Shown: positions 1,511 to 20,974 of the stretch, piece by piece
Layout: the number at the start of each line of letters is the position of its first letter
How positions within the stretch are numbered: position 1 is the stretch's first letter
Assembly (NCBI GenBank): GCA_964612515.1
Contig: CAZTCX010000006.1
Span: forward strand, 1 to 46,129
DNA from: an uncultured Lentimicrobiaceae bacterium
Lineage (GTDB): Bacteria; Bacteroidota; Bacteroidia; Bacteroidales; 4484-276
DNA length: 46,129 nucleotides
Direction of reading: 5' to 3'
Notes under the pieces: model-generated
Seen by the model: only the letters and a program-made list of their open reading frames with translations
What the model was told of the DNA's origin: nothing
Database searches by the model: none
Position numbers and translations under genes: made by a program

Positions 1511-1911
1511 AAAAATATTTATTTGACACAAACATTTGTATCTATTACATTCAAGGTAAATTTTCGTTGAATGAAAAGTTCCGGGAGGTTACCAAGGAAA
1601 ATAGATTCATCTCTGAAATTACATTGGCTGAATTGAAATTTGGAGTTGAAAACAGTCAGTCTAAAAAGAAAAATCAAGAAACGCTTGATAACTTTTTAAC
1701 CGGAATTCAAATTCTTCCAATTATTAATTCTCTTGATATTTATGCTGAAGAAAAGGCCAGATTAAGAAAACAAGGTAACACGATTGATGATTTTGATTTG
1801 TTGATAGGAGCTTCTGCAGTTGCAAATGATATGGTTCTGGTGACGAATAACGAAGCGCATTTTCAGCGGATTACTAAAATTATGATTGAAAATTGGGCCA
1901 AAACCCAGTAA
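1507..1911 (+). CDS. vapC: Type II toxin, PIN-domain ribonuclease VapC
   Basis: 134 aa. The acidic PIN signature is present: LFDTN (Asp7), ITLAELKFG (Glu), DDFDLLIGASA (Asp) and VTNN near the C-terminus. It is translationally coupled (TTGA overlap) to the upstream small ORF. Confidence 0.85.
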   Translation: MKKYLFDTNICIYYIQGKFSLNEKFREVTKENRFISEITLAELKFGVENSQSKKKNQETLDNFLTGIQILPIINSLDIYAEEKARLRKQGNTIDDFDLLIGASAVANDMVLVTNNEAHFQRITKIMIENWAKTQ

Positions 1912-3451: not shown

Positions 3452-6400
3452 TTATTTTACAATCAACTTGCGATGAATTACCTGCGAATCGTTGTAGATA
3501 CGCATGTGAATAACCCCGGTAGCAAAAGATGATAAATCAATAGCAACGCGATTCTCACCATCCTCGGCCAAACGGCAGGAAATGGTTTGCAGCACCTGTC
3601 CGTTGACATTCCGAAGCTCAATTTGCATATCGCTTTTTACACCCGAAACATATACCATTCCTGAAGTAGGATTTGGATAAACAGAAATCAGTGAAGTATC
3701 ATCAGGTGTCGGAATTGCCGTTGTTGATGTTTTAGTAATGACCGACACGCCTCCCGAAACAAATTGTCCGTTATGGCAGGCAAATGTCTGATCGAACGCA
3801 ACTTCCAACGTGAATTGCTCGCCGGTTGCCGGACGAATTACTTCAAAACGGATGGCTTCATTTTCGGCAAATCCATCCGTTGCGTCAGTGAGTACATCAT
3901 TGCCAAAAAGAACGATCACATTTCCGAAATCATTTATCTGATGTGCTCCGGCACAAATTCCGGAGGTGGTAAACGCGCCAAGGATGTCGCCAGGCTGAAG
4001 TATGGCAGCCAGATCGTCGTGGATTGCAATGCTGTGCGAGGCTGGTGAATAATGAATCTCGTTCCAGGGGGTATCATATTTGGGTTGTAGCGGCGCTGCT
4101 CCGGCTGACGATTTCAATCCGTCGCATTCGGCAAAGGTGAGGCTAAAAGGTTGGGCTGCTCTGATCTCGTAAGCACGACCCGGCTGCAATTCACCAATGG
4201 TATTGATACTTAAGGCCGGCCAATAAACGCCTGTTCCGGCGATCTCTTTTACTATCTGAACTTTTGTATCATAACCAGCAAGCAAAGTAGCAATATTCAC
4301 GGGACAACTGCTGATTACCGGAAGGTAATTCCAGCCAGATACCATTTGTACCTTACGGTTGCTATTGTTGTCGCCCACTAATTTAAAGGCTACGCTGGTA
4401 GAAAATTTTACGGTATAGCCGGTTTGTGCGTCCCACAAATTCAAAGTTTTCACGTTGTGCTCCGGATAAAACATTTCGCTATAGTTACGTGCTATGACGA
4501 AATCATCCAGATAAGGATCAAAAATAGCTTCGATGTTTGGGTCACCCGGATTAATCCAGGACGATAATCCACTCCATCCGGCAGGGATCATTACTATCTG
4601 CTGATCATAAACTTGCAGATACATCACGTTACTGGTCGCGGAACCACAGTCATTAAAAACTTCAAAATAGTAATATCCTTCGTCCTCGTAGGTAGCTTGC
4701 GCAATAAGCAGCTCCGGCATATTTGCACCTGCTATCATTCCGTCAGGACCATACCATTGGCAACCTGTAGCATTCTCAACTTCCATATTTAATACGATGC
4801 TTTCGCCAATGACCACATAAGTATCGGTAAGATTGGACACGAAAGCAGGCAATGGATCAATGGTGAGCATAAAGCTGCTACTAATAGAATTTGTGCATGG
4901 CGCCAGGGCAAAAGCTGTAAGCGTAAGTTCTGCCTGACCATTTGCTGCATCGGCCATACCAGGAGAATAGATGGTAAGAATAGAGGAAGCGTTTGTAAAA
5001 GTGCCATCTCCACTGGTAGTCCAAAGAATGTTTGAATAATCTTCGGCGGAAGCCAACGTGGTTTCAACTATCCCACCCTCGCAAACGGTTTTATCCGCAC
5101 CAGCTTCTACCAGGGGCATCACGGGTTTTGTAATCGTAAGGCTGTCGATAGCTGAGGCAAAGTCGTCGAAAGCAATGGCGTGAAGGTACAGCGTAATTTC
5201 ATCGGCTCCACGGTCGGCGGGGCCTAATTTATATTTACCAACACCAGCATTTGGATGATCGAAAGTACCGTCGCCGCCGGTGGTCCATTGCAAAGCCTTG
5301 TATCCGCTCGCTGAACCTGCCAATGCGACAATACTGTCGTTTCCACAAATAAAGATGTTTGCACCAGCATTTGCCTGAGCATCATCACCTTCTTGCGTGA
5401 GCTTAAGCGCTATCTCATCTGCAGCATCCATAACGCATGGGTTGATCGACATAACAGCCATCGCCAAATGAATGGTGTCCTGATAAACATCGAAGGGCGA
5501 CGCGATATAAGAAGCGTTTACGGAAGTAGGATTTTCGAACATACCCATACCATTGGTGGTGTACCACTGCACCAGCGAAGCATTTTCAGCCCAGGCGTCA
5601 GCGATATGATATGGTTCTCCAAAAGGAACAATATTATCACCACCCGCATAAACCACTGCATTTTGTAGAATAGTAACCTTCACACAATCGTTGGCATCCT
5701 GACAAGGAGGAGTTGCAATGGCTTGCACACACAGAGTTACCGTTCCGACAACATCGTCGATAATTCCCGGGAAATAGGTAGGATGCAACAACGTGGCATC
5801 ATCAAAGGTTCCATCACCTGTGGTGCTCCACAGAATAGCTTCAGCAAAGTTTATCATAGCATTTTCCAGCATAATACTCTCGCCTGTACAAATTGTCAAA
5901 TCTGCTCCTGCGTTGGCTTCGGCATCGATACAATCATTTCTCTCTATCGTCAGCGTCAGTTCACAAGTTGCTGAAATCGTACATGGATTTTCTGGTTTAG
6001 CTTCCAACTTGAGTACAACGTTACCTTGTCCCACATCAGAATTACTCGGAGTATAAATGGTGTTGAGCTCATTTGCATTAATAAAAACACCTGTTCCGGA
6101 GGTGTGCCAGATAACCTCGCTGTGGTGTTCGGCAGTTGCATCCAGCAACTGATAGCTTTCTCCCTGCTCAATGATTGCATCTGAACCCGCATAAGCGAAA
6201 GGAAGAGGAACAATTGTTAAAGTTAGGCATTCAGAAACCGCCTCACAATTGGCTTTGCCAAAAGCTGTGAGGCAAAGCTCGGTACCGCCATTGCTTACAT
6301 CGGCAGTGCCCGGGAAATATTTAGTTACCAAAGCACTGGCATTGGCAAACGTACCATCGCCATCCGTACTCCATAGCACAGATAGCTGGTTAGTGGCTTG

Positions 6401-9400
6401 CCCCTGCAATGAAACCTGATTATCAGCGCAGCTCAGAATATCACCACCCGGATAAACGGTGGGCGATTTCATGATGGTTAATTTCATGCAATCGTTAGTT
6501 GTAACACACGGTGACTGGCCATTGGCTTGCAGGCAAAGATTGACATAACCGTTCAGCGCATCATTAGAGCCAGGTGTGTAGGTGGTAATAGCTGCCGTTG
6601 GGTCAGCAAAAGTACCATCTCCGTTGGTGGTCCATTGTATGGAGATGGTATTTTGTACTGATCCATTCAAAATATAAGGAGTAGTTTGACAGGTGGTTGC
6701 GTCAACACCGGCATTGGCTACAGGGACAGGAACGAGTGAAACTGCGACTGCATCAGTCACGAAGCCGCATCCATTAGAACCAGTAGCTTTGATAGTTAGC
6801 TGAACGAAACCATTATTTTTATCAACCTGGCTTGGGAAATAAGTGGGATTCAAAATCTGTGGATTGCTGAAGCTTCCTGTCCCGCTGGTATTCCAAAATA
6901 CCGATGAGTGACCAGTGGCAGTTGCCTGAAGTGGCACATTTTGGTTGGCACAGACTGTTACATCATTTCCGGCAAAAGCCGTAGGTCCCGGCTGGAAAGT
7001 AAGGATTAGGCAATCACTCACTGGTTCACAAATGCCGCCGCCGCTTTGGGCTGTAAGGCATAGTTTCGCGCCCAGATTGGCATTGTCTGTTGCGCCGGGA
7101 TAATAGGTTGTGGTGTGCGCAGATGGATTGGCAAAAGTGCCGTCGCCATCAGATGACCAAAGTACAGAGCTGGCATTGGCGGATGCACCCGAAATAGTTG
7201 CATATTGATTCACGCAAAGTGTCTGATCTTCTCCCGCATCTGCTGTTGGGGGAGTTTGAAGTGTAATGACCAAGCAATCCTGCGACTGACCACAACCATT
7301 TTCTGCAAAAGCATTTAGACAAATTTTTGCAGATCCTTCCGCGATATCGTTGTTGCCCGGCGTGTAGATGCTGACGAGTGCTGTAGTGGTGCTGAAAGTT
7401 CCGTCACCAGTGGTCGTCCATTGCAGCGATTCAAATTTGCTGGCTTGTGCCGATAATGCAACATTAGCTGTGTTGCAAATAGTAACATCGTTTCCGGCGG
7501 CTACTTCAGGCAAACTGATAATCGTGAGCTGCATACATGCCATGGTATTTTCACAAGCGAAACGGCCGGTAGCTGTAATGCACAAATCAGCTCCACCTGC
7601 TGCCACATCATTGGCACCGGGATAATATACCGATGAAAGCGCTTGTGGTGTTGCAAAAGTTCCATCTCCCGTTGTGCTCCAAAACACCGATTGATAATGT
7701 GCGGCTACAGCTACGACTGTTATGGTCTGACCCGGGCAGATAGCAACATTTTCCAGTGCAGCTATTTCAGGATTGGGTTGCAATGTAATTTTCAACCCGT
7801 CACTGATTTGCGTACAGGGTGAAATCCCCTGGGCCGTAATGGTGAGGTTGGCATAACCCATCATTTTGTCCTGACTTCCCGGGAAATAAGTTGCATTTGC
7901 TAAAGAAGCATTATTAAAGGTTCCGTCGCCGGCAGTAGTCCAGGCAAGGCTGCTGTATTTAGTTCCTGTGGCAATCAATTGTGCAAAGTTGCTTTCGCAG
8001 ATGGTAAAATCAGCTCCTGCATTTATTACCGGCGCCGGTTGAATCGTTAATAACATCGCGTCGAAAGCATTGTCACAAACACCATTGGCGAAAGCTTTAA
8101 GCGAAAGCACAACGCTTCCCTGGCTTTTGTCATTTGCGCCCGGAGTATAGATAGCATTAGGCAAAGTCGCGTTATTGAACGATCCATCACCCGCAGTGCT
8201 CCACAATACGCCATTATTGTTGGAAGCTGTACCTGATAATTGATACGTCTGGTTTTGACAGATTACCGCATCAGCACCAGCATTGGCAATCGGACTCTTT
8301 TGAATCTCAATTTCGATACACGATAAAGCATCAGCACAAGCTGCCGCAGAAATAGCTTTGAGACATAAAGTTACAAAACCATTTTGCAGATCAGCGGCTC
8401 CGGGTGTGTACATTGCGTTAAGCGCCGAAGGATTGTTGAAAACGCCGTCGCCACTGGTGCTCCAAACAACGCTGGCGAAGTTGGTGGCTATGGCCGATAA
8501 CTGCACCTGTTCGCCGGCACATATCTGCTGGTCGTTGCCGGCGTTGGCAGTAGGCACAGGTAAAATATTTATGATCATTTCACTGATGGCGTCACCACAA
8601 TTCCCTGACGAAAATGCCGTGAGACTGATCTTAGCCTTACCAAGAGCGATATCTCCGGCTCCCGGCAAATAGGTAGTGTTGAGAGCAGCAGCATTTGTAA
8701 AGGCACCGTCGCCTTTGGTTGTCCAAAGCAAGCTTTCATAATCGGCTGCCTGCCCGACAAGGGTGGCAGTTCCCGTTTCGCAAATGATCATATCATTTCC
8801 TGCATTGGCGTAAGCCGATGGAATTAGCGTAAGCACAAAAGAACTTGCGTCCGAAGTACATCCCGCCAATGGATTTGCGACAAGCTGCAGTTCTACAGTT
8901 TCGGCTACAATATCGGCAGCTCCGGGATAATAAATTGTGTTGAGGAAGGCTGCATCTTCAAAAGTGCCGTCGCCTGAAGTTATCCATTGCAGGCTTTGAT
9001 AATCGGCTGCAAATGCTTCAAACAGCATGTATTCCTCATTGCCACAGATAGTAGCATCCTCACCGGCATAAACGATGGGCTGGGCATTGAAAGTGACGCA
9101 CAGAGTATCATACACCGCTTCACACGGGCTGTTGGTTGCCGACAGAATCAAATCGACACGTCCACCGATTTTTTCATAAAAACTAAAGACATACCGCGTC
9201 ACAAGCTGATTTGGTGAAGTAAAAAATCCTTCTCCGGTAGTGATCCATAAAATATTTCCTCCGTTCACAGCACTTCCAACAAGATCAATGTAATCTTCAG
9301 TAACACACAAGGTGACGTTCTCGCCGGCATCAATCACTGGCGAATTGCCAAAAATGATCTCGAGGCAATCTGTTGCGTTATTGCAATTTCCACCAGCAAA

Positions 9401-12400
9401 AGCTGTGAGACAAAGCTGGACAGTGCCTGCAGTCCGATCAGAAGTGCCGGGGAAGTAGCTTGTATTAATATTTGATACTGCACCAAAAGTACCGTCGCCG
9501 CTGGTATTCCACAAAACTCCGGTTTGATTTTGAGCGGTTGCGGTAAGCACTATTCCGCCGCTGTAGCAAACGGTAAGATCAGCACCTGCATCAGCAATGG
9601 CATCTTGGCAATCGGGCGTAATGGTTAGTTGCTTCTGATCGCTGGCTGCAACGGTACATGGATTAAGCGGCGCTGCCTGAAGCGTGAGAACGACTTGCTG
9701 CTGTTGCTCGTCAGGTACCGACGGCGTGTAGGTGGTGTTCAATTGATTTGCATTACCAAAAATACCACTGCCATTGGTAATCCACTGCACTGCCGTGTGG
9801 TATTGTGCGGTGGCGTCATTAATCTGAAATTGCTTTCCGGTAATCGCGACTGCATCCTGGCCGGCATTGGCTATCGGATTCTTTTGTATGCTGATGGAGA
9901 TGCAACTTGTGCTTTCCGGGCAACCCATCAATCCTTGTGCAGTAAGGCAAAGCCCGACATTACCATTAAGTTTATCGGCTGCTCCGGGAGTATATTTCGC
10001 GTTAAGCGCTGAAGTATTATTAAAACTTCCATCGCCATTGGTACTCCACGTGAGGCTGGCATAATTGGCGGCTGTAGCCGAAAGCTGTACCTGTTTGCCT
10101 GCGCAAATCTGTTGGTTATTGCCGGCGTTGACGGTGGGCATTGGTATGATATTAATTTGCAATTCACTCGTTGCATCACCACAATTTCCTGATGAAAATG
10201 CGGTGAGACTCACTTTCACGTAACCCAGCGTACGGTCAGCGGTTCCGGGGAAATAGGTTGTGTTGAGAACAGTAGCATTTGCAAAAGTTCCGTTTCCAGT
10301 GGTTTCCCAAAGCAAGCTTTCATAATTTGCAGCCTGCCCGGCAAGAAGTGCATTTTCAGTTGCACACAGGGTCAAATTATTTCCAGCATTGGCGTAAGCT
10401 GACGGAATAAGCGTAAGGGTGAAATTGCTTTGTGCCTGCTGGCATCCCGATAGCCCGGCAGCCGAAAGGGTTAAGGTTACCATGCCTGCCGTCGCATCAT
10501 TGCTACCCGCATAATAGGTTGCGTGAAGCATCGAGGCATTGTCAAAAGTACCATCACCATTGGTTGACCATAAGAGAGCTGAATAATACGTAGCGGTAGC
10601 ATTGGTATTAATGAAGGGATCGCTGGCGCAAATGGTAGCATTGCTGCCGGCAAAAACCACTGCAGCTTTATTGATGGTAACGGTAAGCGTGTCGCTTACG
10701 GTTCCACAGGTGGCATTGGTAGCTTTAAAAACCAACTTTACTTCACCCAGTTGTTTATCCAGGCCACTAAAGAAGTATTTGGGGGTTTGACTTGTGGTTG
10801 GAGAAAAATAACCCGTTCCCAGGGTCACCCACTGAAACGACTGATAGTTCTGTGCCTGTCCGTTTAGCTGAACAAAAGAGTTGGTTGTACATGCAGAAAT
10901 ATCTGCTCCGGCATCAACAATTGGCGGGGTCCCAAAAGTAATCGTAAGACAATCGGTAGCATCATTGCAATCTCCGCTGGCAAAAGCAGTAAGACAAAGC
11001 TGAACATTGCCATTTACTATGTCAGCCGCGCCGGGTAAATAAGTGGTATTAATATTTGTTGCTGAAGCAAAAGTGCCGTCACCATTTGTAGTCCACAAAA
11101 CTCCGGTTTGATTCTGTGCTGTTGCGCTTAGCGCAATGGAACCGCCGGAGCAAAAAGTAATGTCAGAACCTGCATTAACAATAGCATCCTGGCAATTGGG
11201 TGTAATGGTCAATTGCTTCTGATCGCTGGCTGCAACTGTACACGGATTGAAGGGTGCTGCCTGCAGTGTAAGAATGACCTGCTGTTGTTGCTCGTCAAGT
11301 ACTGATGGCGTGTAGGTGGTATTTAATTGATTGGCATTACCAAAAATACCACTGCCATTGGTCAGCCATTGCACTGCCGACTGGTATTGTGCGGTGGCAT
11401 CATCAATCAGATATTGCTGGCCGGTAACAGCCATTGCATCCTGGCCGGCATCGGCCGTTGGATTGTAGCGTATCTCTAGCGTGGTGCAACTGATATTTTC
11501 GGGACAGCCCATCAATCCTTGCGCGGTAAGACATAACTCGACGCTGCCGTAAAGCAGATCGGTTGTTCCGGGAGTGTATTTAGCTTGCAACAGTGTTGCA
11601 TTATCAAAAGTACCGTCGCCTTCAGAAGTCCAATGCACGCTGGCATAATTTGCGGCTGTGCCCTGAAGCACATAAGAATTACCGGCACACACGGCGGCAT
11701 TGTTTCCGGCGTTCACTTGTGGAACCGGAACAAAAGTTACTTTAATGCAATCGCTCGCCGGCAGACATTCTCCATAGCCTTGAGCATTCAAACACAAAGT
11801 TACGCTGGGAGCAGAGGCATCGCCAGATCCCGGATAATAAATAGGCTGCGGTGTGTCGCCATCGGTAAATACGCCATCACCAGAAGTAGTCCAGGTGAGG
11901 GATGCATAATTGCTTGCCGTGCCAAAAAGCGGCAGACCAACAGTGCTGCAAACGGTCATGTCGTTTCCAGCCCACACTTCAGGCATGTCGTCAAAATAAA
12001 GTACAATCTGATCACTGGCTGAAGTGCACGTTTCATAAGCTGCTACTGACATGGTCAGGGTTACTGATCCATTGTCGAGATCCTGCTCTGAAGGATAATA
12101 CTGGGGACGGCTTATGTAATTATAGTCGAAAGTTCCGCTACCATTGCTTGTCCACAGGACACTGCTGAAGTTTTTGGCCACTGCTTCTGCAAGGAGTACC
12201 GAAGAAGTTTCAAGTTCCTTACACAGATGCATATCAGCTCCTGCAAATGCCGTAGCATCGATACAATCTCCCACAAAATTTATAGCTACCATATCTTCAT
12301 CAGCAATCTGGCATGGGGTGATAGGGGAAACAGCTATGAAAATAAAAATCTGCCCCTGCATAATGTCCATTGGCGATGCGTAGTAGGTTGGATGCAAAAT

Positions 12401-15400
12401 ACTTTCGCTGTCGAACATACCCATTCCGTTGGAAGTGTACCATTGTATGGTTTCGAAATTCTCAGCATACGATTGTGTCAGGTGATAGCCTTCGCTGATG
12501 GGCACAGTATTATCCGATCCTGCAAATGCCAGCGGTGGCTTTTGGAATGTCAGCGTAATGTAATCGCTAATGCTCTGGCCATCGTTGCCAAAGGCTTTCA
12601 GGCAAAGCGTTGCCTGGCCGTTGTAAATCTCACCAGAACAGGGAGTATAAATAGGATTAAGTATTGAAGCATTACTAAAGGTTCCGTTTCCACTGGTGCT
12701 CCATTGCAATGTGGCGTAGTTGATGGCCTGAGCAGCCAATTGTATATTTTGACCTGAACAAACCACAGCATCTTCTCCCGCATCTACCATAAGATCCAGA
12801 ATGTTGATGGTCAACAGCATCGCATCACTTACAGGCAATGTGCATGGATTTTTGGGCAAAGCGTTAAGCGTAAGCGTCACCGGTTGGTTCTGATAATCTG
12901 CTTGCGACGGAGTATAAATCGTCACTGCCTGCAGTGGGTTAGTAAAAGTTCCGCTTCCCGAAGTGCTCCATTCTATCCAGGAATAATGCTGGGCATTGGC
13001 CAAAAGGGTCTTATAGCTGCTGCCCTGATCGATGGTGGCATCGTTGCCGGCAAATACCACGGGGTTCTTTTCTATGGTGAGCAGCAGACAACTGGAAGCG
13101 TTTCCGCAACCCGACAATCCCTGCGCATTCAGGCAAATTTCGACACTTCCCGCGGCAATATCCTGACTTCCGGGATGGTATTGCGCATTAGCGCCCTGTC
13201 CATTTGTAAAAGTACCATCGCCATTTGTGATCCAAAGCAGTGAGCTATAGTGTGCAGCAATTCCCGTAAGCAGAAGCGAACCACCTTGACAAATGGCAGC
13301 ATCCGCTCCCGCAAATACTGTAGGAAGTGCTATGATATTAATGTCGGTGCAATCAGTTGCATTGCCGCAGGGCGTCGTGCCTTTAGCCGTCAGGCAAAGA
13401 GTGACAATTCCTGCAGCTATGTCAGCAGTGCCGGGTGTGTATTTCGCGTTAAGCGCAAAAGGATTATTAAAAACGCCGTCGCCACTGGTGTTCCAAATTA
13501 TGCCGGTATGATGGGTGGCTGTAGCCGAAAGCTGTACCTGACTGCCTTCACAAATCTGCTGGTTGTTGCCGGCGTTGGCAGTGGGCATTTTTATGATATT
13601 AATTTGCAATTCACTTGTTGCGTCGCCGCAATTCCCTGATGAGAATGCCGTAAGGCTAACTTCTACATAGCCTAAAGCACGGTCAGCTGCTCCCGGAAAA
13701 TAGGTGGTACTGAGGTTGGCAGCGTTGGCAAAAGTACCATCGCCAATAGTTTCCCACAATAAACTTTCGTAATTAGAAGCCTGACCCGCAAGAGCTGCGG
13801 TCTGCGTAGCACAAATGGTCATGTCATTTCCTGCATTGGCGATAGCAGACGGAATAAGCGTAAGCATGAAACTGTTTTGTGCCTGCTGGCATCCCGACAG
13901 TCCGACGGCAGAAAGCGTCAAAGTTACCGTGCCTGTTGTTTTATCATTTGTACCAGCATAATAAGTTGCGTGAAGCAATGAGGCATTATTAAAAGTCCCA
14001 TCGCCGGTGGTTGACCAGAGGAGCGCCGTATAATTCGTAGCGGAAGCATTGGCGATGGTAAACGGCTGGCTGGCGCAGACGGAAGCATTGCCACCAGCAT
14101 ATACTGTTGGAGGAGTATTGATGGTTACGGTGAGCGTATCGCTCACGGTTCCGCAAGTGGCATTGGTAGCTTTGAAGACTATCTTTACCTGGCCCAATTG
14201 TTTATCTAGGCCGCTAAAGAAATATTTGGGAGTAAGACTTGTGGGCGGAGAAAAATAACCTGTTCCCAGCGTCACCCACTGGAAAGACGTATGATTTTGC
14301 GGCTGACCAATTAAATTTACAAAAGAGCCTCCACAGACTGTAATATCGGATCCGGCATTTGCGATGGGCGCTTTGCCAAAAGTAACATTGAGGCAATCGG
14401 TGGCGTCGTTGCATTCTCCATTTGCGAAAGCGGTAAGGCAAAGCTGAACATTGCCAGTTGCAATATCGGCGGTACCGGGATAATAAGTGGCGTTAATATT
14501 TGTGGCATCATTAAAGGTGCCATTGCCTGAGGTTGTCCAAAGCACAGAAGTTTGGTTTTGGGCTGTTCCGCCAAGGGTTACGTTGGATGTTTCGCAAACT
14601 GTCCGGTCAGATCCAGCATTGGCCACAGCGTCTTCGCAACCATTTACGAAAGTGATTACCATCTCATCCTGAATGTTGCCAACGCAAGGATTTTGTGCAT
14701 TAGCAATCAGCTTTAGCGTCACCACCTTATTTTGATAATCCGCTTGTCCGGGTGTGTAAATAGTCGATAATGCCGAAGGGTTAGCAAAAGTGCCGTCGCC
14801 GGAAGTACTCCACAGCAACGATGAATAATTATTGGCCTGAGCCGCATTTGTATTATAAAGATCTCCGATGATGAGTGTTAAATCATTCCCTGCGTAGATA
14901 TTGGGCATCGGTTGCAGATGCAAAGTCATGCAATCATTGACGATGGGACAGCTCTGGATGCCGTCGGCGCTAAGGCACAACTGCACCGTTCCGGCGGTTT
15001 TATCGGCTATGCCCGGAAAATATTGGGTCTGCCGTTGGTTGGGATTGGCAAAACTTCCATCTCCTGAGGTTGTCCATTGCAGCGTTTCGGCATTGGTGAC
15101 TACTCCGTTTGTATTAAATGATTGATTAACACAGATCGTTGCATCAACTCCTGCATTCACCGTTGCCGGTGTGAGAAGGACGATTTTGATCTGATCAGTA
15201 GCATCATCGCAAACGCCGTTGGCTTTCGCCAGAAGATTTAATAATACAAAACCATTTTGGGCGTCGCCGGCTCCGGGGGTATAGGTGGGGCGCAACAGGC
15301 CGCTATTGCTGAAGGTGCCGTCGCCTTGCGTGCTCCAAAGCAGTGATGCGTAATTCTGTGCTGTTGCCGACGACAAAGCGACAGGTGTGCCTGGATTGAA

Positions 15401-18400
15401 ACAGATTTGCTGATCGGCTCCGGCATAGGCAGTAGCATTTTCACATCCGGAGGTAATGGTAAGATTCATTTCGTCGAAAGACGCCGTAACACAAGGATTG
15501 ATGGGTAATGCTGTTAGTTTCAGAACCACAACTTGAGTGTTATAATCGGCTTCCAGCGGTGTGTAGGTTGCCGTGAGGGAGTTTGCATTTTGAATAGTTC
15601 CGGCGCCATTGGGCGTAGTCCAAAATATGCTACTGGCGTTTGTTGCCGATGCACCATTAATCGTAAAACTACTTCCGAGTGCCACTTGCCCATTGTTACC
15701 TGCATTTACCACAGGGTTTCTGGTAATGGAAACCGTGAGGGAGCCAGATGCGTTGCTACAGGTATTTCCTGAAATAGCTGTGAGTTGAAGCACAACCTGA
15801 CCATTGGCAATGTCGAGGTTGCCCGGTGTGTAGGTAGTTGATAATGCTGATGCGTTGGCAAAAGTGCCATTCCCGTTCGTACTCCAGATAACAGATTGTG
15901 CATTGGTAGCGGTTCCGCTAAGTTGTACATTTTGCTGTTCACAGACGGTTATATTACTGCCGGCATTAACAACCGGCGAAGTCGATAAAGTGACCAGTCT
16001 GCTATCCTCAGCGGTGGTCTGGCAGGGCGACTTAGGTAAAGCTCTCAGCGTAAGCGTAACACCTCCGGCTGCCACATCCTGATTGGATGGATTGTAAGTT
16101 GTACTGCGGGCGTTTTTATTTGCAAAAGTACCGTTACCGCTTGTTTCCCACACTGTAGAATTATAGTTGGATGCAGTGCCGCTTATCGCAATGGGCTGTC
16201 GTTCGCAGGAAGCAATATCGTTACCTGCGTTACTCACCGGATTTTTAAATATTGTAACCACGAGTTGATCAGCAGCAGAAACTGTACAGGGCTGCTGGGC
16301 GCCTGCTGTTAAAGTTAGTGTAACGGTTCCCAGTTGTATGTCGTTGTTTCCGGGATTATAGCTGGTTGCTAATTGTTGCGCATTTGAAAAACTCCCATCT
16401 CCCGATGTCGTCCAAAGGACGCCGCTGTTGTACTGCACACTTCCACTAACTGATACTTGTGTCCCCTGACAGGCTGTGACGTCATTTCCTGCATTTGCAA
16501 GTGGTGCGTGCTTTATCTGTATAGTCTTGTTCATGACGGCATTTCCTGAGCAAGGTGAAACAGAAGATGCTGTGAGGGTAAGCTTCACGCTACCATTGGC
16601 TATGTCCTGCGAACCCGGTGTATATTGCGGGTTTAGAATCGAAGGATTACTAAATGCTCCGTCGCCGGTGGAAGTCCATAATAATGAGCCATAGTTTGAA
16701 GCTGATGCTGATAAACTGATGGGTTGCGTTTGGCAAACCGATGCAGGTGCAGTAATCTGATTAACTACAGCCGGCTTGAGGATAGTCACAATTTTTTGAT
16801 CAGCATTTCCATTTACGAAAGGGGGCTGACCAAAGGGTGTTAGTGAAAGGAATACTTGTCCGGCGGTCACATCAGCAGCCGAGGGCGTATATTGTGTGGA
16901 TAGCTGAGTTGCATTAGCAAATGTACCGCTGCCGGAAGTGGACCAAAGCACAGAAACATAGTTTGTAGCACTGCCCTGCAATGTAACCTTGGTGGCACCA
17001 CAAATAGTAACGTCGGGACCAGCGTTGGCAACTGCTCCTTCTACAAAACTAACCAACAGGCCATCCTCAGCGGGTGTGGTACAAGGAGCCAATGGATTTG
17101 CCTTCAGAGTGAGAAACACCGATTTATTATTTAAATCACCTGCTCCAGGAGAATAGCTGGTTACAGCCTGCTGCGCATTGGCAAATGTGCCGTCGCCTGC
17201 AGTCGACCATAGGAGTGAAGAATAGGATGATGCAGTGCCATTAAGTGGAACTATTGCGGTATTTAGGGTTGCGAAATCCTCTCCGGCATTTACTACCGGA
17301 TCGGGATTAACCCAAAGATCCATTCTGTCAAATTTGACTCCTACACAAGGTTCAATAGAAGTCACGTAAATGGTAAGTCGTGGTTTACCATTGATTTTGT
17401 CGTTAGGCCCGGGGGTGTAAGTAGTTACCAGTTGGGTATCGTCCACAAAGGTACCATCTCCACTGGTGTACCACTTCACCGTACTTTGATAAGAAGCAGT
17501 AGCACAGGTGGTAAAAGTTTCATTAGCGCAAATGGTAGCATCATCACCGGCATAACATATTGCAGGTTTATTGATCTGGAGGAATGTTTCTTTTACTATC
17601 GAAGCATCGCAAGGTGGCTGGCCATAACCTGTAAGTGTAAGCTTCACCGTGGAGTGAGAATTAGCGTAAGTACCCGGAGTGTAGGTGGTAACAAGTGATG
17701 TAGGATTACTAAAAGTTCCATTGCCAGCCGTTTGCCACAACAATCCCGACACATTACTGGCAGTCGCTTCAATATCAACGGGCACGCCCTGACAGGTAAA
17801 AAGATCCTGAGGAACTACAACAATAGGAGAGGGGAAAAGTGTTATTTCCATCTGGTCGGTAGCCTGGGCGGTACACGGTGCCATAGGCTGGCACGCAATG
17901 CTAAGAATAACTCCATTGTTATTAAAATCGCCATTGCCGAAATAGTAAATTGTATTGGCCGTATTACTATTTTCGAAAGTGCCATCGCCGGATGTTGACC
18001 AAAAGACATTAGAAACATTCTGAACTACCGGCGAAAGCAAGATTTGATTAATACCGCAAGTTGCAATATCCTCCCCAATGTTTACAAAAGCAGATTTACT
18101 TACGCAGATGCCAATAAAACTGGTGGCGGTAGCAGTACCCAAGGTAGCCTTTACTTTAAAAATTTTATCTTCAGTTACAGAAACTGATGGATTTTTAAGA
18201 GAAGAGGTAAATCCCGGGGGGATGGATGTCCAGTTGTAGGTTATGTTTCCTGACCCGGTAATAATTTCCGCATTCAGAGAGGCAGTGCCCTGATCACAAA
18301 ACAACTCCTGATTAGCCGCGGCCCGAACGATTACATCCTCAAAGCAGTTCATCTTGATGAGTTTAATCAGGTTCAACGGATACCATTTGTTACTCATCGT

Positions 18401-18931
18401 GTATTCAGGGCTGAGTTGTATCTCGTCCACATCAAATTCGGCCATCATGTCAAAAGAAAATAGTTTGTAATGAATGGTTTCGCCATAGGCAAAGCCTTCT
18501 TTGATCGGTGTGTCCGGGTCGTCGCCAAACAGCGAGAAAACGATACCCGCAGTATCAGGCCAGTAAATGGCACCAGCACACTGATATTGTCCCTGGGAGT
18601 TCAGGAAAAATCCGCCGATTGCATCGTTTTGCTTCAGCGGCATTCCGTTGATCTTAGGGCGGGCCTCTTTGGCCACAATTACCCCGGTAATATTACCGGT
18701 ATTCACTGGCAAGTCCCACCCCGGAGGATAAGTAAAAGAACTTTTGGAATTAGAATTTTCCAATAACGAATCAAGAATTTTCTTCCCATTTAAAATCATT
18801 TCAGGATTTTCCTGACTTACCCCATCGGGCAACTGAGAATAAATTTGAGCGTTAAGTGTGTTTGTAGTGCATAGTGTTAGCGTCAGGGCATAGACCGCCA
18901 CCCTGATAATCCAGTTGTAACATAAACTCAT
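3452..18931 (-). CDS. Giant (5,159 aa) secreted repeat protein, T9SS type-A cargo; putative fibrillar surface adhesin built from ~50 copies of an unassigned ~87-aa module
   Basis: A single uninterrupted 15,480-nt ORF. It has an N-terminal signal peptide and ~50 tandem modules sharing AGxDxxxC...W-x-T-x-G-D-G-T-F...Y-x-P-G-x-x-D...G-x-V-x-L-x-L-T-A...C. The C-terminus carries YPNPTSGMVYV...IHMRIYNDSQVIHRKLIVK, typical of a T9SS sorting domain. Confidence 0.9.
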   Translation of the reverse strand: MSLCYNWIIRVAVYALTLTLCTTNTLNAQIYSQLPDGVSQENPEMILNGKKILDSLLENSNSKSSFTYPPGWDLPVNTGNITGVIVAKEARPKINGMPLKQNDAIGGFFLNSQGQYQCAGAIYWPDTAGIVFSLFGDDPDTPIKEGFAYGETIHYKLFSFDMMAEFDVDEIQLSPEYTMSNKWYPLNLIKLIKMNCFEDVIVRAAANQELFCDQGTASLNAEIITGSGNITYNWTSIPPGFTSSLKNPSVSVTEDKIFKVKATLGTATATSFIGICVSKSAFVNIGEDIATCGINQILLSPVVQNVSNVFWSTSGDGTFENSNTANTIYYFGNGDFNNNGVILSIACQPMAPCTAQATDQMEITLFPSPIVVVPQDLFTCQGVPVDIEATASNVSGLLWQTAGNGTFSNPTSLVTTYTPGTYANSHSTVKLTLTGYGQPPCDASIVKETFLQINKPAICYAGDDATICANETFTTCATASYQSTVKWYTSGDGTFVDDTQLVTTYTPGPNDKINGKPRLTIYVTSIEPCVGVKFDRMDLWVNPDPVVNAGEDFATLNTAIVPLNGTASSYSSLLWSTAGDGTFANAQQAVTSYSPGAGDLNNKSVFLTLKANPLAPCTTPAEDGLLVSFVEGAVANAGPDVTICGATKVTLQGSATNYVSVLWSTSGSGTFANATQLSTQYTPSAADVTAGQVFLSLTPFGQPPFVNGNADQKIVTILKPAVVNQITAPASVCQTQPISLSASASNYGSLLWTSTGDGAFSNPSILNPQYTPGSQDIANGSVKLTLTASSVSPCSGNAVMNKTIQIKHAPLANAGNDVTACQGTQVSVSGSVQYNSGVLWTTSGDGSFSNAQQLATSYNPGNNDIQLGTVTLTLTAGAQQPCTVSAADQLVVTIFKNPVSNAGNDIASCERQPIAISGTASNYNSTVWETSGNGTFANKNARSTTYNPSNQDVAAGGVTLTLRALPKSPCQTTAEDSRLVTLSTSPVVNAGSNITVCEQQNVQLSGTATNAQSVIWSTNGNGTFANASALSTTYTPGNLDIANGQVVLQLTAISGNTCSNASGSLTVSITRNPVVNAGNNGQVALGSSFTINGASATNASSIFWTTPNGAGTIQNANSLTATYTPLEADYNTQVVVLKLTALPINPCVTASFDEMNLTITSGCENATAYAGADQQICFNPGTPVALSSATAQNYASLLWSTQGDGTFSNSGLLRPTYTPGAGDAQNGFVLLNLLAKANGVCDDATDQIKIVLLTPATVNAGVDATICVNQSFNTNGVVTNAETLQWTTSGDGSFANPNQRQTQYFPGIADKTAGTVQLCLSADGIQSCPIVNDCMTLHLQPMPNIYAGNDLTLIIGDLYNTNAAQANNYSSLLWSTSGDGTFANPSALSTIYTPGQADYQNKVVTLKLIANAQNPCVGNIQDEMVITFVNGCEDAVANAGSDRTVCETSNVTLGGTAQNQTSVLWTTSGNGTFNDATNINATYYPGTADIATGNVQLCLTAFANGECNDATDCLNVTFGKAPIANAGSDITVCGGSFVNLIGQPQNHTSFQWVTLGTGYFSPPTSLTPKYFFSGLDKQLGQVKIVFKATNATCGTVSDTLTVTINTPPTVYAGGNASVCASQPFTIANASATNYTALLWSTTGDGTFNNASLLHATYYAGTNDKTTGTVTLTLSAVGLSGCQQAQNSFMLTLIPSAIANAGNDMTICATQTAALAGQASNYESLLWETIGDGTFANAANLSTTYFPGAADRALGYVEVSLTAFSSGNCGDATSELQINIIKMPTANAGNNQQICEGSQVQLSATATHHTGIIWNTSGDGVFNNPFALNAKYTPGTADIAAGIVTLCLTAKGTTPCGNATDCTDINIIALPTVFAGADAAICQGGSLLLTGIAAHYSSLLWITNGDGTFTNGQGANAQYHPGSQDIAAGSVEICLNAQGLSGCGNASSCLLLTIEKNPVVFAGNDATIDQGSSYKTLLANAQHYSWIEWSTSGSGTFTNPLQAVTIYTPSQADYQNQPVTLTLNALPKNPCTLPVSDAMLLTINILDLMVDAGEDAVVCSGQNIQLAAQAINYATLQWSTSGNGTFSNASILNPIYTPCSGEIYNGQATLCLKAFGNDGQSISDYITLTFQKPPLAFAGSDNTVPISEGYHLTQSYAENFETIQWYTSNGMGMFDSESILHPTYYASPMDIMQGQIFIFIAVSPITPCQIADEDMVAINFVGDCIDATAFAGADMHLCKELETSSVLLAEAVAKNFSSVLWTSNGSGTFDYNYISRPQYYPSEQDLDNGSVTLTMSVAAYETCTSASDQIVLYFDDMPEVWAGNDMTVCSTVGLPLFGTASNYASLTWTTSGDGVFTDGDTPQPIYYPGSGDASAPSVTLCLNAQGYGECLPASDCIKVTFVPVPQVNAGNNAAVCAGNSYVLQGTAANYASVHWTSEGDGTFDNATLLQAKYTPGTTDLLYGSVELCLTAQGLMGCPENISCTTLEIRYNPTADAGQDAMAVTGQQYLIDDATAQYQSAVQWLTNGSGIFGNANQLNTTYTPSVLDEQQQQVILTLQAAPFNPCTVAASDQKQLTITPNCQDAIVNAGSDITFCSGGSIALSATAQNQTGVLWTTNGDGTFASATNINTTYLPGAADIVNGNVQLCLTAFASGDCNDATDCLTITFGTPPIVDAGADISACTTNSFVQLNGQAQNYQSFQWVTLGTGYFSPTTSQTPKYFFSGLDKQLGEVKLVFKATNATCGTVSDTLTVTINKAAVVFAGSNATICASDPFINTNATATYYSALLWSTNGDGTFDNASMLHATYYAGSNDATAGMVTLTLSAAGLSGCQQAQSNFTLTLIPSAYANAGNNLTLCATENALLAGQAANYESLLWETTGNGTFANATVLNTTYFPGTADRTLGYVKVSLTAFSSGNCGDATSELQINIIPMPTVNAGNNQQICAGKQVQLSATAANYASLTWSTNGDGSFNNTSALNAKYTPGAADKLNGNVGLCLTAQGLMGCPESTSCISISIQKNPIANAGQDAVAITGKQFQINDATAQYHTAVQWITNGSGIFGNANQLNTTYTPSVPDEQQQQVVLTLQAAPLNPCTVAASDQKQLTITPDCQDAIADAGADLTVCYSGGIVLTATAQNQTGVLWNTSGDGTFGAVSNINTSYFPGTSDRTAGTVQLCLTAFAGGNCNNATDCLEIIFGNSPVIDAGENVTLCVTEDYIDLVGSAVNGGNILWITTGEGFFTSPNQLVTRYVFSFYEKIGGRVDLILSATNSPCEAVYDTLCVTFNAQPIVYAGEDATICGNEEYMLFEAFAADYQSLQWITSGDGTFEDAAFLNTIYYPGAADIVAETVELQLVANPLAGCTSDASSFVLTLIPSAYANAGNDMIICETGTATLVGQAADYESLLWTTKGDGAFTNAAALNTTYLPGAGDIALGKAKISLTAFSSGNCGDAISEMIINILPVPTANAGNDQQICAGEQVQLSAIATNFASVVWSTSGDGVFNNPSALNAMYTPGAADLQNGFVTLCLKAISAAACADALSCIEIEIQKSPIANAGADAVICQNQTYQLSGTASNNNGVLWSTAGDGSFNNATLPNAIYTPGANDKSQGSVVLSLKAFANGVCDNAFDAMLLTIQPAPVINAGADFTICESNFAQLIATGTKYSSLAWTTAGDGTFNNASLANATYFPGSQDKMMGYANLTITAQGISPCTQISDGLKITLQPNPEIAALENVAICPGQTITVVAVAAHYQSVFWSTTGDGTFATPQALSSVYYPGANDVAAGGADLCITATGRFACENTMACMQLTIISLPEVAAGNDVTICNTANVALSAQASKFESLQWTTTGDGTFSTTTALVSIYTPGNNDIAEGSAKICLNAFAENGCGQSQDCLVITLQTPPTADAGEDQTLCVNQYATISGASANASSVLWSSDGDGTFANPSAHTTTYYPGATDNANLGAKLCLTAQSGGGICEPVSDCLILTFQPGPTAFAGNDVTVCANQNVPLQATATGHSSVFWNTSGTGSFSNPQILNPTYFPSQVDKNNGFVQLTIKATGSNGCGFVTDAVAVSLVPVPVANAGVDATTCQTTPYILNGSVQNTISIQWTTNGDGTFADPTAAITTYTPGSNDALNGYVNLCLQANGQSPCVTTNDCMKLTIMKSPTVYPGGDILSCADNQVSLQGQATNQLSVLWSTDGDGTFANASALVTKYFPGTADVSNGGTELCLTAFGKANCEAVSECLTLTIVPLPFAYAGSDAIIEQGESYQLLDATAEHHSEVIWHTSGTGVFINANELNTIYTPSNSDVGQGNVVLKLEAKPENPCTISATCELTLTIERNDCIDAEANAGADLTICTGESIMLENAMINFAEAILWSTTGDGTFDDATLLHPTYFPGIIDDVVGTVTLCVQAIATPPCQDANDCVKVTILQNAVVYAGGDNIVPFGEPYHIADAWAENASLVQWYTTNGMGMFENPTSVNASYIASPFDVYQDTIHLAMAVMSINPCVMDAADEIALKLTQEGDDAQANAGANIFICGNDSIVALAGSASGYKALQWTTGGDGTFDHPNAGVGKYKLGPADRGADEITLYLHAIAFDDFASAIDSLTITKPVMPLVEAGADKTVCEGGIVETTLASAEDYSNILWTTSGDGTFTNASSILTIYSPGMADAANGQAELTLTAFALAPCTNSISSSFMLTIDPLPAFVSNLTDTYVVIGESIVLNMEVENATGCQWYGPDGMIAGANMPELLIAQATYEDEGYYYFEVFNDCGSATSNVMYLQVYDQQIVMIPAGWSGLSSWINPGDPNIEAIFDPYLDDFVIARNYSEMFYPEHNVKTLNLWDAQTGYTVKFSTSVAFKLVGDNNSNRKVQMVSGWNYLPVISSCPVNIATLLAGYDTKVQIVKEIAGTGVYWPALSINTIGELQPGRAYEIRAAQPFSLTFAECDGLKSSAGAAPLQPKYDTPWNEIHYSPASHSIAIHDDLAAILQPGDILGAFTTSGICAGAHQINDFGNVIVLFGNDVLTDATDGFAENEAIRFEVIRPATGEQFTLEVAFDQTFACHNGQFVSGGVSVITKTSTTAIPTPDDTSLISVYPNPTSGMVYVSGVKSDMQIELRNVNGQVLQTISCRLAEDGENRVAIDLSSFATGVIHMRIYNDSQVIHRKLIVK
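3455..3691 (-). other. T9SS type-A C-terminal sorting domain (CTD)
   Basis: LISVYPNPTSGMVYVSG...IELRNVNGQVLQT...LSSFATGVIHMRIYNDSQVIHRKLIVK has the conserved YPNP motif and the terminal beta-strand pattern of Por secretion-tail domains. Confidence 0.85.
3791..4075 (-). other. C-terminal copy of the head-type domain (aa ~4953-5047)
   Basis: See the N-terminal domain entry. The shared motifs are xD-I/L-G-x-F, CAGA, LFG(D/N)D and (E/D)GFA-x-x-E-x-I-x-(F/Y). Confidence 0.6.
4607..4834 (-). other. Immunoglobulin (I-set-like) domain following the repeat array
   Basis: NLTDTYVVIGESIVLNMEVENATGCQWYGPDG...ATYEDEGYYYFEVFNDCGSATSNVMYLQV shows the Ig pattern C...W...Y.DxG.Y.C. Confidence 0.6.
8288..9598 (-). 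repeat. Super-repeat copy 3: 5 modules (a-b-c-d-e), more diverged, aa 3112-3548
   Basis: The module order is the same, at a 1,584-nt offset from copy 2. Modules a, d and e are clearly alignable (for example SLTAFSSGNCGDA[T/I]SE), while b and c are more diverged. Confidence 0.75.
9599..11182 (-). repeat. Super-repeat copy 2: 6 modules (a-b-c-d-e/l chimera-m), aa 2584-3111
   Basis: Exactly 528 aa / 1,584 nt. Module b matches copy 1 at 54 of 58 residues from SFQWVTLGTGYFSP to TLTVTIN. Module 5 mixes e-type and l-type segments. Confidence 0.8.
11183..14626 (-). repeat. Super-repeat copy 1: 13 modules (a-b-c-d-e-f-g-h-i-j-k-l-m), aa 1436-2583
   Basis: Modules a-e and l-m recur in the same order in copy 2. 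The offset between matching positions is 3,447 nt, measured from conserved antisense-ORF strings at 14118/10671 and 13431/9984. Confidence 0.8.
18092..18334 (-). other. Divergent first PKD/Ig-like module (aa ~200-280)
   Basis: FCDQGTASLNAEIITGSGNITYNWTSIPPGF...KATLGTATATSFIGICV keeps the C...L.A...Y.W pattern of PKD-like modules but lacks the GDGTF core. Confidence 0.4.
18407..18736 (-). other. N-terminal non-repeat head domain (aa ~66-175), homologous to a C-terminal domain of the same protein
   Basis: It contains NDAIGGFF...YQCAGA...IVFSLFGDDPDTPIKEGFAYGETIHYKLF. Compare GDILGAFT...GICAGA...VIVLFGNDVLTDATDGFAENEAIRFEVI at aa ~4953-5047. Confidence 0.6.
18848..18931 (-). other. Signal peptide of the giant protein
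   Basis: MSLCYNWIIRVAVYALTLTLCTTNTLNA|Q has a hydrophobic core followed by a small-residue cleavage-like site. Confidence 0.6.
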
Positions 18932-20834: not shown

Positions 20835-20974
20835 CAGCTATTTTTTACACATTATTGACATGTAATGAATTTGGGTGGCTAAACTACACAATTTCATTTA
20901 TTCCACCGATAGTCACTGCCATTCTTCGCCTAAAAGGCCTATTTTTGTTTTTTAATTTTTTAAATTTACAACCA

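Follow-up and report, generated by a model that had tools for sequence, protein, structure and literature searches.

We analysed a 46,129-nucleotide stretch of contig CAZTCX010000006.1 from an uncultured Lentimicrobiaceae bacterium (the window, by which we mean this whole stretch) and describe here the giant gene on its minus strand. The gene is, as an initial annotation made from the same DNA had reported, a single uninterrupted open reading frame (ORF) of 5,159 amino acids (aa). It has an ATG start and no internal stop codon in the translation, and no comparable ORF lies in the other frames. From N to C terminus the encoded protein comprises a signal peptide, a head domain, an immunoglobulin (Ig)-like domain, 50 tandem modules, an Ig domain, a two-domain unit that we call the cassette and a type IX secretion system (T9SS) sorting domain (Table 1). 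With one flanking Ig-like domain at each end of the 50 modules, the Ig-like domains total 52. The full architecture, from the head through the two Ig domains and intervening modules to the cassette and a type A C-terminal sorting domain (CTD), recurs in relatives that carry 52 (P0008), 29 (P0022), 13 (P0140) and 11 (P0154) modules. Conserved ends combined with a stalk of variable length are typical of fibrillar surface proteins.

The giant gene is real, complete and well assembled. Proteins of 5,159 aa that are 91-99.96% identical to its product are recorded in several independent assemblies. They include a near-identical group from several other sources, with the same length and 99.6-99.96% identity, and a 91%-identical form, also of 5,159 aa, that shows two gap positions relative to the giant protein, keeps exactly 50 modules and is found on 20 contigs, 50 kb to 1 Mb long, that stem from different projects, so that the 5,159-aa protein recurs on at least 20 independent metagenome contigs; at the two of these loci that were examined and are shown in full, the gene neighbours match those of the window. 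Because the DNA repeats within the gene are at most 80% identical over 300 nucleotides, its short-read assembly is credible. The conserved core is kept in every module, and the G+C content of the gene (0.46-0.48) is the same as that of the neighbouring genes. Misassembly is common in tandem-repeat genes, and 18 of the 23 module-bearing ORFs in GTDB metagenome-assembled genomes (MAGs) are cut off at a contig end (loci L003-L013, L031 and L044), which would favour either an assembly artefact (a chimera, or a repeat array that was collapsed or expanded) or a pseudogene in decay. Set against the absence of internal stops and the intact core of every module, such an origin is extremely improbable, and an artefact of assembly was rejected on the recurrence across contigs, the shared neighbourhoods and the limited identity of the internal repeats. 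The truncated ORFs have a consequence of their own: short-read bins systematically fragment such genes, and their size and frequency are therefore underestimated in genome catalogues.

The stalk is built from one kind of module. A regular expression for the core W-x-T-x-G-D-G-T-F matches exactly 50 times, at intervals of 87-96 aa, between aa 280 and aa 4694. The alignment of the 50 modules has a mean column identity of 41%, and pairwise identity between modules averages 36%. W32, G36, G38 and Y50 are invariant, A6, G7, T34, F40, D56 and C74 are conserved in at least 90% of the modules, and the consensus reads xPxxxAGxDxTxCxxxxxxLxAxAxNxxSxxWxTxGDGTFxNxxxLxTxYxPGxxDxxxGxVxLxLxAxxxxxCxxAxDxxxxTIxx. 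The skeleton and the count of 50 given in the initial annotation thus agree with both the regular expression and the alignment, and the module length of 86-93 aa stated there is adjusted to 87-96 aa by the spacing of the matches. Modules 14-18 and 27-31 are 61-80% identical to one another at an offset of 13 modules, compared with the 36% average, and modules 26 and 32 are 84% identical. Because these modules are so alike, we take the stalk to contain internal segmental duplications at offsets of 13 and 6, with modules 33-37 as a further related block at the offset of 6. At the DNA level the duplicated module blocks appear as repeat families D2-D4, which are 70-80% identical. In a variant that we term type II (modules 4, 10, 13, 20, 22, 26, 32, 46 and 48), Cys13 is absent, G-x-x-Y follows the first strand and the linker is usually lengthened and contains a cysteine; this variant occurs at a spacing of 2 to 14 modules, and modules 22 and 48 also have an unusual W-Y-T-x-N-G-M-G-M-F core in common.

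No curated model in Pfam or NCBIfam covers the full length of the module. For the whole protein the best Pfam match is PKD_4, at 31 bits and over profile positions 3-30 of 85 only, and single modules match PKD_4 in 7 of 50 cases (E 0.005-1); scattered matches of single modules to Pfam Ig_7, K319L-PKD, Cadherin_5 and Big were not significant, and a search of NCBIfam with the module returned nothing. The family is nevertheless large. An exhaustive search with a hidden Markov model (HMM) of the module, covering 1.84 billion cluster representatives, found 8,338 proteins at E <= 1e-3, a number that falls to 5,080 at E <= 1e-10 and to 2,186 at E <= 1e-30. We relied on this search because a word-indexed protein search seems not to retrieve giant proteins: it returned seven short fragments for the module profile and nothing for the head, the parent protein itself included. 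Many of the HMM matches carry 20-67 module copies; the top 150 are mostly giants with 11-67, and about half of the top matches end, by a heuristic, in the '…LIR' signature of type B CTDs. For the few matches whose source is named, it is a Cytophagaceae bacterium or a Bacteroidota or Bacteroidales MAG, and the protein bears the name 'hypothetical protein', 'PKD repeat protein' or else 'gliding motility-associated C-terminal domain-containing protein'. Two of the giants are instructive. P0016 joins 48 modules to a CHU_C domain, and P0018 carries 34 modules, then 14 canonical PKD_4 domains (E 1.6e-203) and then CHU_C; the Pfam PKD models recognise all 14 canonical domains of P0018 and none of its 34 modules. 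Judged by sequence, the module is a general stalk element of T9SS cargo with either type A or type B CTDs, and is distinct from canonical PKD at the sequence level.

The fold of the module points to its relatives. AlphaFold2, given an alignment of the 50 modules, yielded a seven-pass beta-sandwich with one short helix at a predicted local distance difference test (pLDDT) score of 97.2, a model that bears out the Ig-like sandwich supposed in the initial annotation. The top Foldseek match in the PDB is 9fly_A, the base (residues 4151-5009) of GhpA (TM-score 0.76, root-mean-square deviation 2.5 A, 24% identity), followed by generic Ig folds such as titin, cadherins and phi29 BIg (TM-score 0.5-0.67, 8-21% identity). 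GhpA, grappling hook protein A of Aureispira sp. CCB-QB1 (PDB 9flp, 9fly and others), is a T9SS substrate that has 52 Ig-like repeats and builds a fibre of 240 nm (Lien et al., bioRxiv 10.1101/2024.01.29.577165). It was also the sole PDB sequence at E <= 0.001 (E 3.2e-4) for a broadened profile, A2, made from 73 diverse modules of 150 proteins, whose matches span whole modules, the best of them at GhpA residues 4936-5012 and 5110-5190. A phmmer comparison of the entire stalk with GhpA gave E 1.3e-26 with heavy compositional bias, and it is mainly hhalign and Foldseek that carry the link. By hhalign the module aligns with GhpA-type repeats over 75 columns (probability 95.8%, E 7e-9) and GhpA-type repeats align with canonical PKD over 71 columns (probability 95.3%, E 2.2e-8); the direct comparison of the module with 34 canonical PKD repeats, over 72 columns, gave a probability of 19% (E 0.0012). 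These alignments place the module's W-x-T-x-G-D-G-T-F opposite 'W-T-G-P-N-G-F' of GhpA and 'W-D-F-G-D-G' of PKD, and both conserved module cysteines opposite 'P-I-C' and 'G-C' of the GhpA-type repeats. The two repeat types also meet in one protein: P0075 (4,890 aa) has GhpA-type 'Y-x-W-x-G-P-N-G-F' repeats at aa ~310-1620, 35-39% identical to the GhpA neck, followed by 34 module copies, PKD domains and a type B-like '...TLMR' C-terminus. By its sequence P0075 is a natural mosaic joining GhpA-type repeats and the module.

With PKD (PF00801 and PF18911) the module shares an Ig-like beta-sandwich of ~85 aa and a W-x-x-G-D-G core with Y...G-x-[YV]-x-[VL]-x-L after it, and the first ~30-50 module residues give the weak PKD_4 matches. 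It differs in having no significant full-length match to any PKD model, and also in its pair of conserved cysteines and its motifs A-G-x-D and Y-x-P-[GS]-x-x-D, all of them peculiar to the module subfamily. We therefore read the module as a divergent, uncurated subfamily of the PKD-like Ig superfamily that is tied to PKD through the GhpA-type repeats, with GhpA as its nearest experimentally characterised relative. The initial annotation had been unable to assign the module to a named family, and for Pfam, NCBIfam and PDB sequence models this holds: a strong full-length match to PKD, Big, cadherin or SprB models, named in advance as the result that would overturn the claim, was sought and none was found. 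The further claim that the stalk domain is novel is overstated, given 8,338 cluster representatives and a remote homology to GhpA/PKD-like repeats.

The cysteines of the module follow a rule that crosses module boundaries. Cys13 (97%) and Cys74 (99%) are the most conserved residues across the family, and in the giant protein Cys13 is missing from 9 of the 50 modules and Cys74 from 3. The three modules without Cys74 (5, 21 and 49) follow exactly those three modules (4, 20 and 48) that have neither Cys13 nor a linker cysteine, and in the other six Cys13-less modules (10, 13, 22, 26, 32 and 46) the linker is lengthened and contains an additional cysteine (…SGCENAT, …NGCE, …GDCIDATA, …PNCQ, …PDCQ and …NDCID). 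A rule in which the donor, Cys13 or the linker cysteine of module i, is paired with the acceptor, Cys74 of module i+1, accounts for 49 of 49 junctions (Fisher p 5e-5), whereas a rule pairing Cys13 with Cys74 of the same module fails at 12 of the 49 positions. Of 3,645 junctions in 150 other proteins, 55 lack the acceptor; the upstream donor is missing as well at 30 of these 55 (odds ratio 104, p 9e-40), but Cys13 of the same module at only 1 of them (odds ratio 0.5, p = 1). The intramodule Cys13-Cys74 disulfide was accordingly rejected, given the 12 failures here and the lack of covariation in the family. In the seven-pass topology of the model, Cys13, at the end of strand A/A', would lie at the C-terminal pole of the module and Cys74, just before strand G, at the N-terminal pole, and a disulfide staple from Cys13 or the linker cysteine of one module to Cys74 of the next is predicted at 46 of the 49 junctions. 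GhpA offers a solved parallel, as its disulfides join nearby Ig-like domains, for example Cys2988-Cys3140 (bioRxiv 10.1101/2024.01.29.577165). By approximate mapping, Cys2988 is residue 13 of a module starting at ~2976 and Cys3140 falls at about column 74 of the module at 3075-3154, so that this pair appears to follow the same inter-module rule.

The pattern seems to run on into the flanking domains. Cys212 and Cys276 of the N-terminal Ig-like domain occupy positions equivalent to Cys13 and Cys74 of the module, and the pairs Cys196-Cys276, Cys212-Cys353 and Cys4617-Cys4762 would have the right spacing for staples. A second pair, Cys65 and Cys80, occurs together in 16 of 17 cases in the giant protein and in 250 of 255 in the family; it is found in a third of the giant-protein modules compared with 7% family-wide, and would be an intramodule disulfide between the adjacent F and G strands. 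Covariation of cysteines across junctions thus supplies a testable rule for the way in which such stalks gain stiffness and for the places at which they may bend.

The two Ig-like domains that bracket the stalk have relatives of their own. A local phmmer search found the N-terminal one (aa 201-279) in 19 related proteins outside its own cluster. The C-terminal one (aa 4695-4775) has a weak Pfam I-set match (E 0.096) and is conserved in 11 related proteins outside its own cluster (E 1e-40 to 6e-4). Its closest solved relatives are the tandem Ig repeats of the phage tail protein 9c2d_S / 9c3a (phmmer E 2.6e-11 against 9c2d_S), and a further one is 9ncf_S, an 'immunoglobulin-like domain protein'.

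The initial annotation had placed a head of ~250 aa at the N-terminus and, beyond the stalk, ~180 aa of unassigned sequence and a second head-type domain. An N-terminal head does exist, as a domain of ~170 aa followed by the Ig-like domain of ~80 aa; the unassigned sequence again matches no family, but measures ~155 aa and forms the first domain of the cassette; and, as supposed, the second head-type domain and the N-terminal head are related, but the former is not obviously ligand-binding and belongs to the cassette, which occurs in 107 ORFs. The head domain (aa 29-200) matches nothing in Pfam or among PDB sequences, known adhesive families in these databases included, while 13 related stalk proteins have a conserved copy of it at their N-terminus (domain E 1e-10 to 7e-61). 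Within the giant protein it resembles aa ~5000-5060 (BLASTP E 3e-4, 33% identity over 60 aa), and the head and cassette domain 2 match each other reciprocally by phmmer in relatives. At the level of sequence the head is thus a paralogue of cassette domain 2, and with its ~170 aa it is the candidate binding head of the distal tip.

The AlphaFold2 model of the cassette (aa 4776-5083) is a compact two-domain unit (pLDDT 89, predicted template-modelling score 0.87). Foldseek with the uncut two-domain model returned from the PDB only meaningless global alignments (TM-score <= 0.18, root-mean-square deviation ~20 A), and the cassette profile matched neither PDB sequences nor Pfam. A scan of one genome per GTDB species with an alignment of seven closer sequences found 79 loci, up to nine per genome, and 107 cassette ORFs in them. 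Nearly all of the loci are titled Bacteroidales, Lentimicrobiaceae, Marinilabiliales or unclassified Bacteroidota MAGs, the exceptions being four in a bin with a Clostridia label and three that belong to an unclassified bacterium, and the best match, 73% identical, comes from a Bacteroidales MAG of an anaerobic digester. The cassette mostly lies ~75-80 aa from the C-terminus. Stalk modules are present in only 23 of the 107 ORFs; the remaining 84, of 400-3,800 aa, carry other passengers and often stand in tandem gene arrays, such as the arrays of ~750-aa cassette genes at L018, L035 and L060. Because many otherwise different cargo of the same lineage share it, we regard the cassette as a generic element and not as another ligand-binding head. 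Its probable role is that of a pedestal or anchoring adaptor, possibly of an assembly adaptor, and it may be an unrecognised element of T9SS surface display.

The protein ends in a type A CTD, matched at full length at the extreme C-terminus: its last 76 residues match PF18962 (E 1.1e-8, 35.6 bits against a cut-off of 27, profile positions 1-75 of 75) and TIGR04183 (E 4.3e-7, 29.8 bits against a cut-off of 23, positions 1-72 of 72). At the other end, aa 1-28 combine a basic n-region with a hydrophobic core and an A-x-A-like cleavage site ahead of Gln (between …TLNA and QIYS), and look like a substrate of signal peptidase I. PorP/SprF, PorE and glycosyltransferase genes are absent from the 46-kb window. 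Cargo of type A uses the general PorV shuttle and PorU sortase and needs no adjacent PorP/SprF gene, whereas type B cargo clusters with one (PMC10202324); the absence of accessory genes, already remarked on in the initial annotation, is what is expected because type A cargo, unlike type B, is not clustered with PorP/SprF. That annotation's description of T9SS type A cargo with a long stalk of tandem modules is likewise upheld.

Around the giant gene, the window contains genes for a FolC-like Mur ligase, a PIN-domain protein (a small ORF lies upstream of its gene), an SDF symporter, a BNR-repeat protein, a TetR regulator with an RND (resistance-nodulation-division) efflux operon, an FKBP isomerase, a two-component system and metabolic functions. 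The BNR/Asp-box repeat protein (561 aa; 521 aa at locus L001) has a weak C-terminal Por_Secre_tail match and is likely, from this match, to be a second T9SS cargo, encoded 2 kb from the giant gene on the opposite strand; with a CTD-bearing protein so close by, the organism probably has further T9SS cargo. A CTD-bearing C1 peptidase is encoded at L001, and these two proteins lend indirect support to a host genome that encodes a T9SS (Sov/SprA, PorKLMN, PorV/U). By the 3' neighbour of the giant gene, a 78-aa ORF overlaps the start of the 134-aa PIN-domain ORF by 4 nucleotides, an arrangement that resembles VapBC toxin-antitoxin pairs. The TetR/RND operon, in which genes for an outer-membrane efflux protein, a membrane-fusion protein and a pump of the AcrB type come after that of the regulator, is conserved beside the giant gene in L001 and L002. 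Elsewhere in the window, a 564-aa protein consists almost entirely of MORN_2 repeat variants (165 bits). A scan for sigma-70 promoters and terminators downstream of the giant gene found nothing, in a scan that does not cover Bacteroidota promoters.

Table 1. Features of the giant gene and selected neighbouring genes, with positions in the window
Feature	Position	Strand	Basis
Whole gene, T9SS cargo protein, 5,159 aa	3452..18931	-	Single ORF; stop codon 3452-3454
Signal peptide, aa 1-28, MSLCYNWIIRVAVYALTLTLCTTNTLNA then cleavage before Q	18848..18931	-	Read from sequence
N-terminal head domain, aa 29-200	18332..18847	-	No Pfam/PDB match; conserved in related stalk proteins
Ig-like domain, aa 201-279, 'Y-x-W...P-x-G-F' type, joins head to stalk	18095..18331	-	phmmer
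Stalk, 50 tandem Ig-like modules of 87-96 aa, aa 280-4694	4850..18094	-	Regular expression, alignment, AlphaFold2, Foldseek, hhalign
Predicted unstapled junction, modules 4/5, linker FVEGAVA	17029..17049	-	No donor, no acceptor cysteine
Modules 14-18, older or newer copy of segmental duplication (partner modules 27-31)	13328..14632	-	Module identity, DNA repeats
Predicted unstapled junction, modules 20/21, linker INILDLMV	12784..12807	-	Cysteine covariation table
Modules 27-31, duplicate of modules 14-18	9878..11188	-	Module identity, DNA repeats
Predicted unstapled junction, modules 48/49, linker LTQEGDDAQA	5366..5395	-	Cysteine covariation table
I-set-like Ig domain, aa 4695-4775	4607..4849	-	Weak Pfam I-set; phmmer to 9c2d_S
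Cassette domain 1, aa 4776-4930 ('IPxGWSGISS...GWNYLPV...IKEIAGxGxYWP'), beta-rich	4142..4606	-	AlphaFold2; no family match
Cassette domain 2, aa 4931-5083, beta-rich, paralogue of N-terminal head	3683..4141	-	BLASTP, phmmer, AlphaFold2
Type A T9SS C-terminal sorting domain, aa 5084-5159	3455..3682	-	PF18962, TIGR04183
78-aa ORF and PIN-domain ORF	1274..1911	+	
BNR/Asp-box repeat protein	20855..22540	+	Weak Por_Secre_tail match
TetR regulator and RND efflux operon	23584..30177	+	
MORN_2-repeat protein	36795..38489	-	165 bits to MORN_2

Starting from the gene, its domains, their homology and the cysteine covariation as observed, the reading that we favour, and hold to be moderately probable, is that the product is a Sec- and T9SS-exported fibre of ~0.2 micrometre, stiffened by disulfides between modules and bearing its head at the distal tip; export, anchoring, stiffness and binding are the parts of it that we infer. 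Of the three features by which fibrillar adhesins are operationally recognised (stalk, adhesive domain and anchor), the protein has a tandem stalk (50 modules and two Ig domains) and an anchoring signal (the type A CTD); its head domain, though conserved in relatives, matches no known adhesive family. In the proposed sequence of events, Sec would export the protein to the periplasm, where it would fold; the T9SS would then recognise the type A CTD and move the protein across the outer membrane, and a PorV/PorU-type attachment complex would process it, with covalent linkage to surface lipopolysaccharide as the most likely outcome. The passenger would project ~0.2 micrometre from the cell, a length that the initial annotation had estimated and that is consistent with the 240 nm formed by 52 Ig-like repeats in GhpA. 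Staples at 46 of 49 junctions would make the stalk a stiff rod, with greater flexibility expected at the unstapled junctions 4/5, 20/21 and 48/49. The beta domain of ~170 aa at the distal N-terminal tip would be the candidate binding head, and at the base the two-domain cassette would form a generic pedestal or anchoring adaptor ahead of the sorting domain.

Several observations weigh against this picture of a stapled, anchored adhesin. The head is without a detectable relative of known function, and the protein is an 'adhesin' by its architecture only. The sequence similarity of the module to GhpA is remote: neither the 50-module profile A1 nor four modules alone found a real match among PDB sequences. 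The staples are predicted from covariation and strand-topology reasoning, and they assume periplasmic oxidative folding in a source organism that is probably an anaerobe. The Bacteroidota O-glycosylation motif D-[ST]-[AILVMT] is depleted in the giant protein, at 8 sites compared with 22.5 +/- 4.2 expected from composition-matched shuffles, and type A CTD cargo includes a significant subset that cells release into the medium (PMC10202324).

The last of these points bears directly on anchoring. Lipid anchoring after cleavage of the CTD is the standard model. The initial annotation had adopted it, and it stands as the standard model but not as a certainty for every cargo, since some type A cargo is released (PMC10202324). 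The giant protein might accordingly be cleaved by PorU and shed into a matrix, biofilm or cell coat, for which a repetitive, disulfide-rich and protease-resistant architecture would be well suited. We consider this unlikely, as the order of an N-terminal head, a variable stalk and a CTD-adjoining cassette has the polarity of an anchored, projecting fibre, and the solved homologue GhpA remains attached to the cell.

GhpA is also the closest term of comparison for the anchored fibre. Both are giant surface proteins dependent on Sec and the T9SS (5,898 aa for GhpA and 5,159 aa here, where export is predicted), both are built from repeats that are remote homologues by Foldseek, profile and hhalign comparison, and disulfides between consecutive Ig-like domains are present in GhpA and predicted here. 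GhpA has been described as a putatively O-glycosylated heptamer, with putative O-glycan densities in all of its Ig-like domains (bioRxiv 10.1101/2024.01.29.577165). A true analogue of GhpA would have aligned protomers forming a rigid, hollow, multimeric 'grappling hook' that catches cells or flagella in predation or co-aggregation. Besides the homology of the stalk modules to GhpA repeats and the shared disulfide pattern, predicted in our case, the close scale (50 modules and two Ig domains compared with 52 repeats and 240 nm) and the combination of GhpA-type repeats with the module in P0075 speak for such a structure. Other features speak against it. Where GhpA has an adhesin-like hook of ~1,400 aa, the protein described here has a 170-aa head, unlike any solved structure, and one Ig domain; GhpA has a type B CTD and adjacent genes for GhpB (PorP-like) and GhpC (PorE-like), whereas here the CTD is of type A, preceded by the two-domain cassette, and neither gene is adjacent; and most GhpA repeats are of the 80-90-aa 'Y-x-W-x-G-P-N-G-F' type, in contrast to the 'W-x-T-x-G-D-G-T-F' type of the module. 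Genes of the type VI secretion system and of gliding motility are absent from the window, and the depletion of the O-glycosylation motif also argues against such an analogue. Taken together, a true analogue of GhpA appears distinctly unlikely. Heavy O-glycosylation as in GhpA was rejected, the motif being depleted and not enriched; four of the six motif sites in the stalk fall at module column 79.

A second comparison is with SprB and RemA of Flavobacterium johnsoniae, which are likewise very large, repetitive, T9SS-secreted surface proteins. RemA shares the type A CTD (PMC10202324), and the authors of the GhpA study note similarities between GhpA and SprB (bioRxiv 10.1101/2024.01.29.577165), which would be compatible with a gliding-motility adhesin moved over the cell surface by the gliding machinery. 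SprB, however, has PF13573 repeats, a type B CTD and a partner SprF, none of which is found here. Other signatures of SprB or RemA and CHU_C were not detected in the giant protein either, the window contains no sprF, sprC/D or gld genes, and the relatives are uncultured Bacteroidales and Lentimicrobiaceae MAGs; a role in gliding is therefore very improbable. With Ig-stalk fibrillar adhesins such as SiiE (Monzon et al. 2021, PMC8286594), the protein shares a head, a tandem Ig-like stalk, a cell anchor and a stalk length that differs among relatives. It differs from them in its T9SS type A CTD, in place of type I secretion or sortase, in the predicted stiffening of its stalk by inter-domain disulfides and in having no recognised adhesive domain.

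A wider possibility, which we put forward as doubtful, is that Lentimicrobiaceae-related Bacteroidales, probably anaerobic and without known cell predation, make GhpA-like, rigid, disulfide-stapled and possibly multimeric appendages of ~0.2 micrometre, attached by way of a type A CTD and lipopolysaccharide in place of PorP/PorE, with the cassette as a hitherto unrecognised, lineage-wide T9SS adaptor for surface anchoring or assembly and the head, the paralogue of one of its domains, as a new kind of binding tip.

To our knowledge, giant T9SS surface proteins are abundant in Bacteroidota and almost uncharacterised, GhpA, solved in 2024, being the only one with a structure. A giant T9SS fibre with an Ig-repeat stalk is thus a kind already known; what is new here is the staple rule and the assignment of the second head-type domain to a cassette shared by many unrelated cargo. 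The giant gene provides a complete, well-assembled example of a large, unmodelled family of stalk modules, and the link between the module and GhpA supplies a structural template for it. With more than 8,000 cluster representatives and no curated model, the module would merit a new domain family, and it is this database gap that leaves genes with the module annotated as 'hypothetical' or, loosely, as 'PKD repeat'. Our results do not overturn current understanding; they extend a known kind of system and reveal a gap in the domain databases. In addition, the cassette, which recurs in about a hundred cargo that differ in other respects, is a candidate for a new element in the surface display of T9SS cargo.

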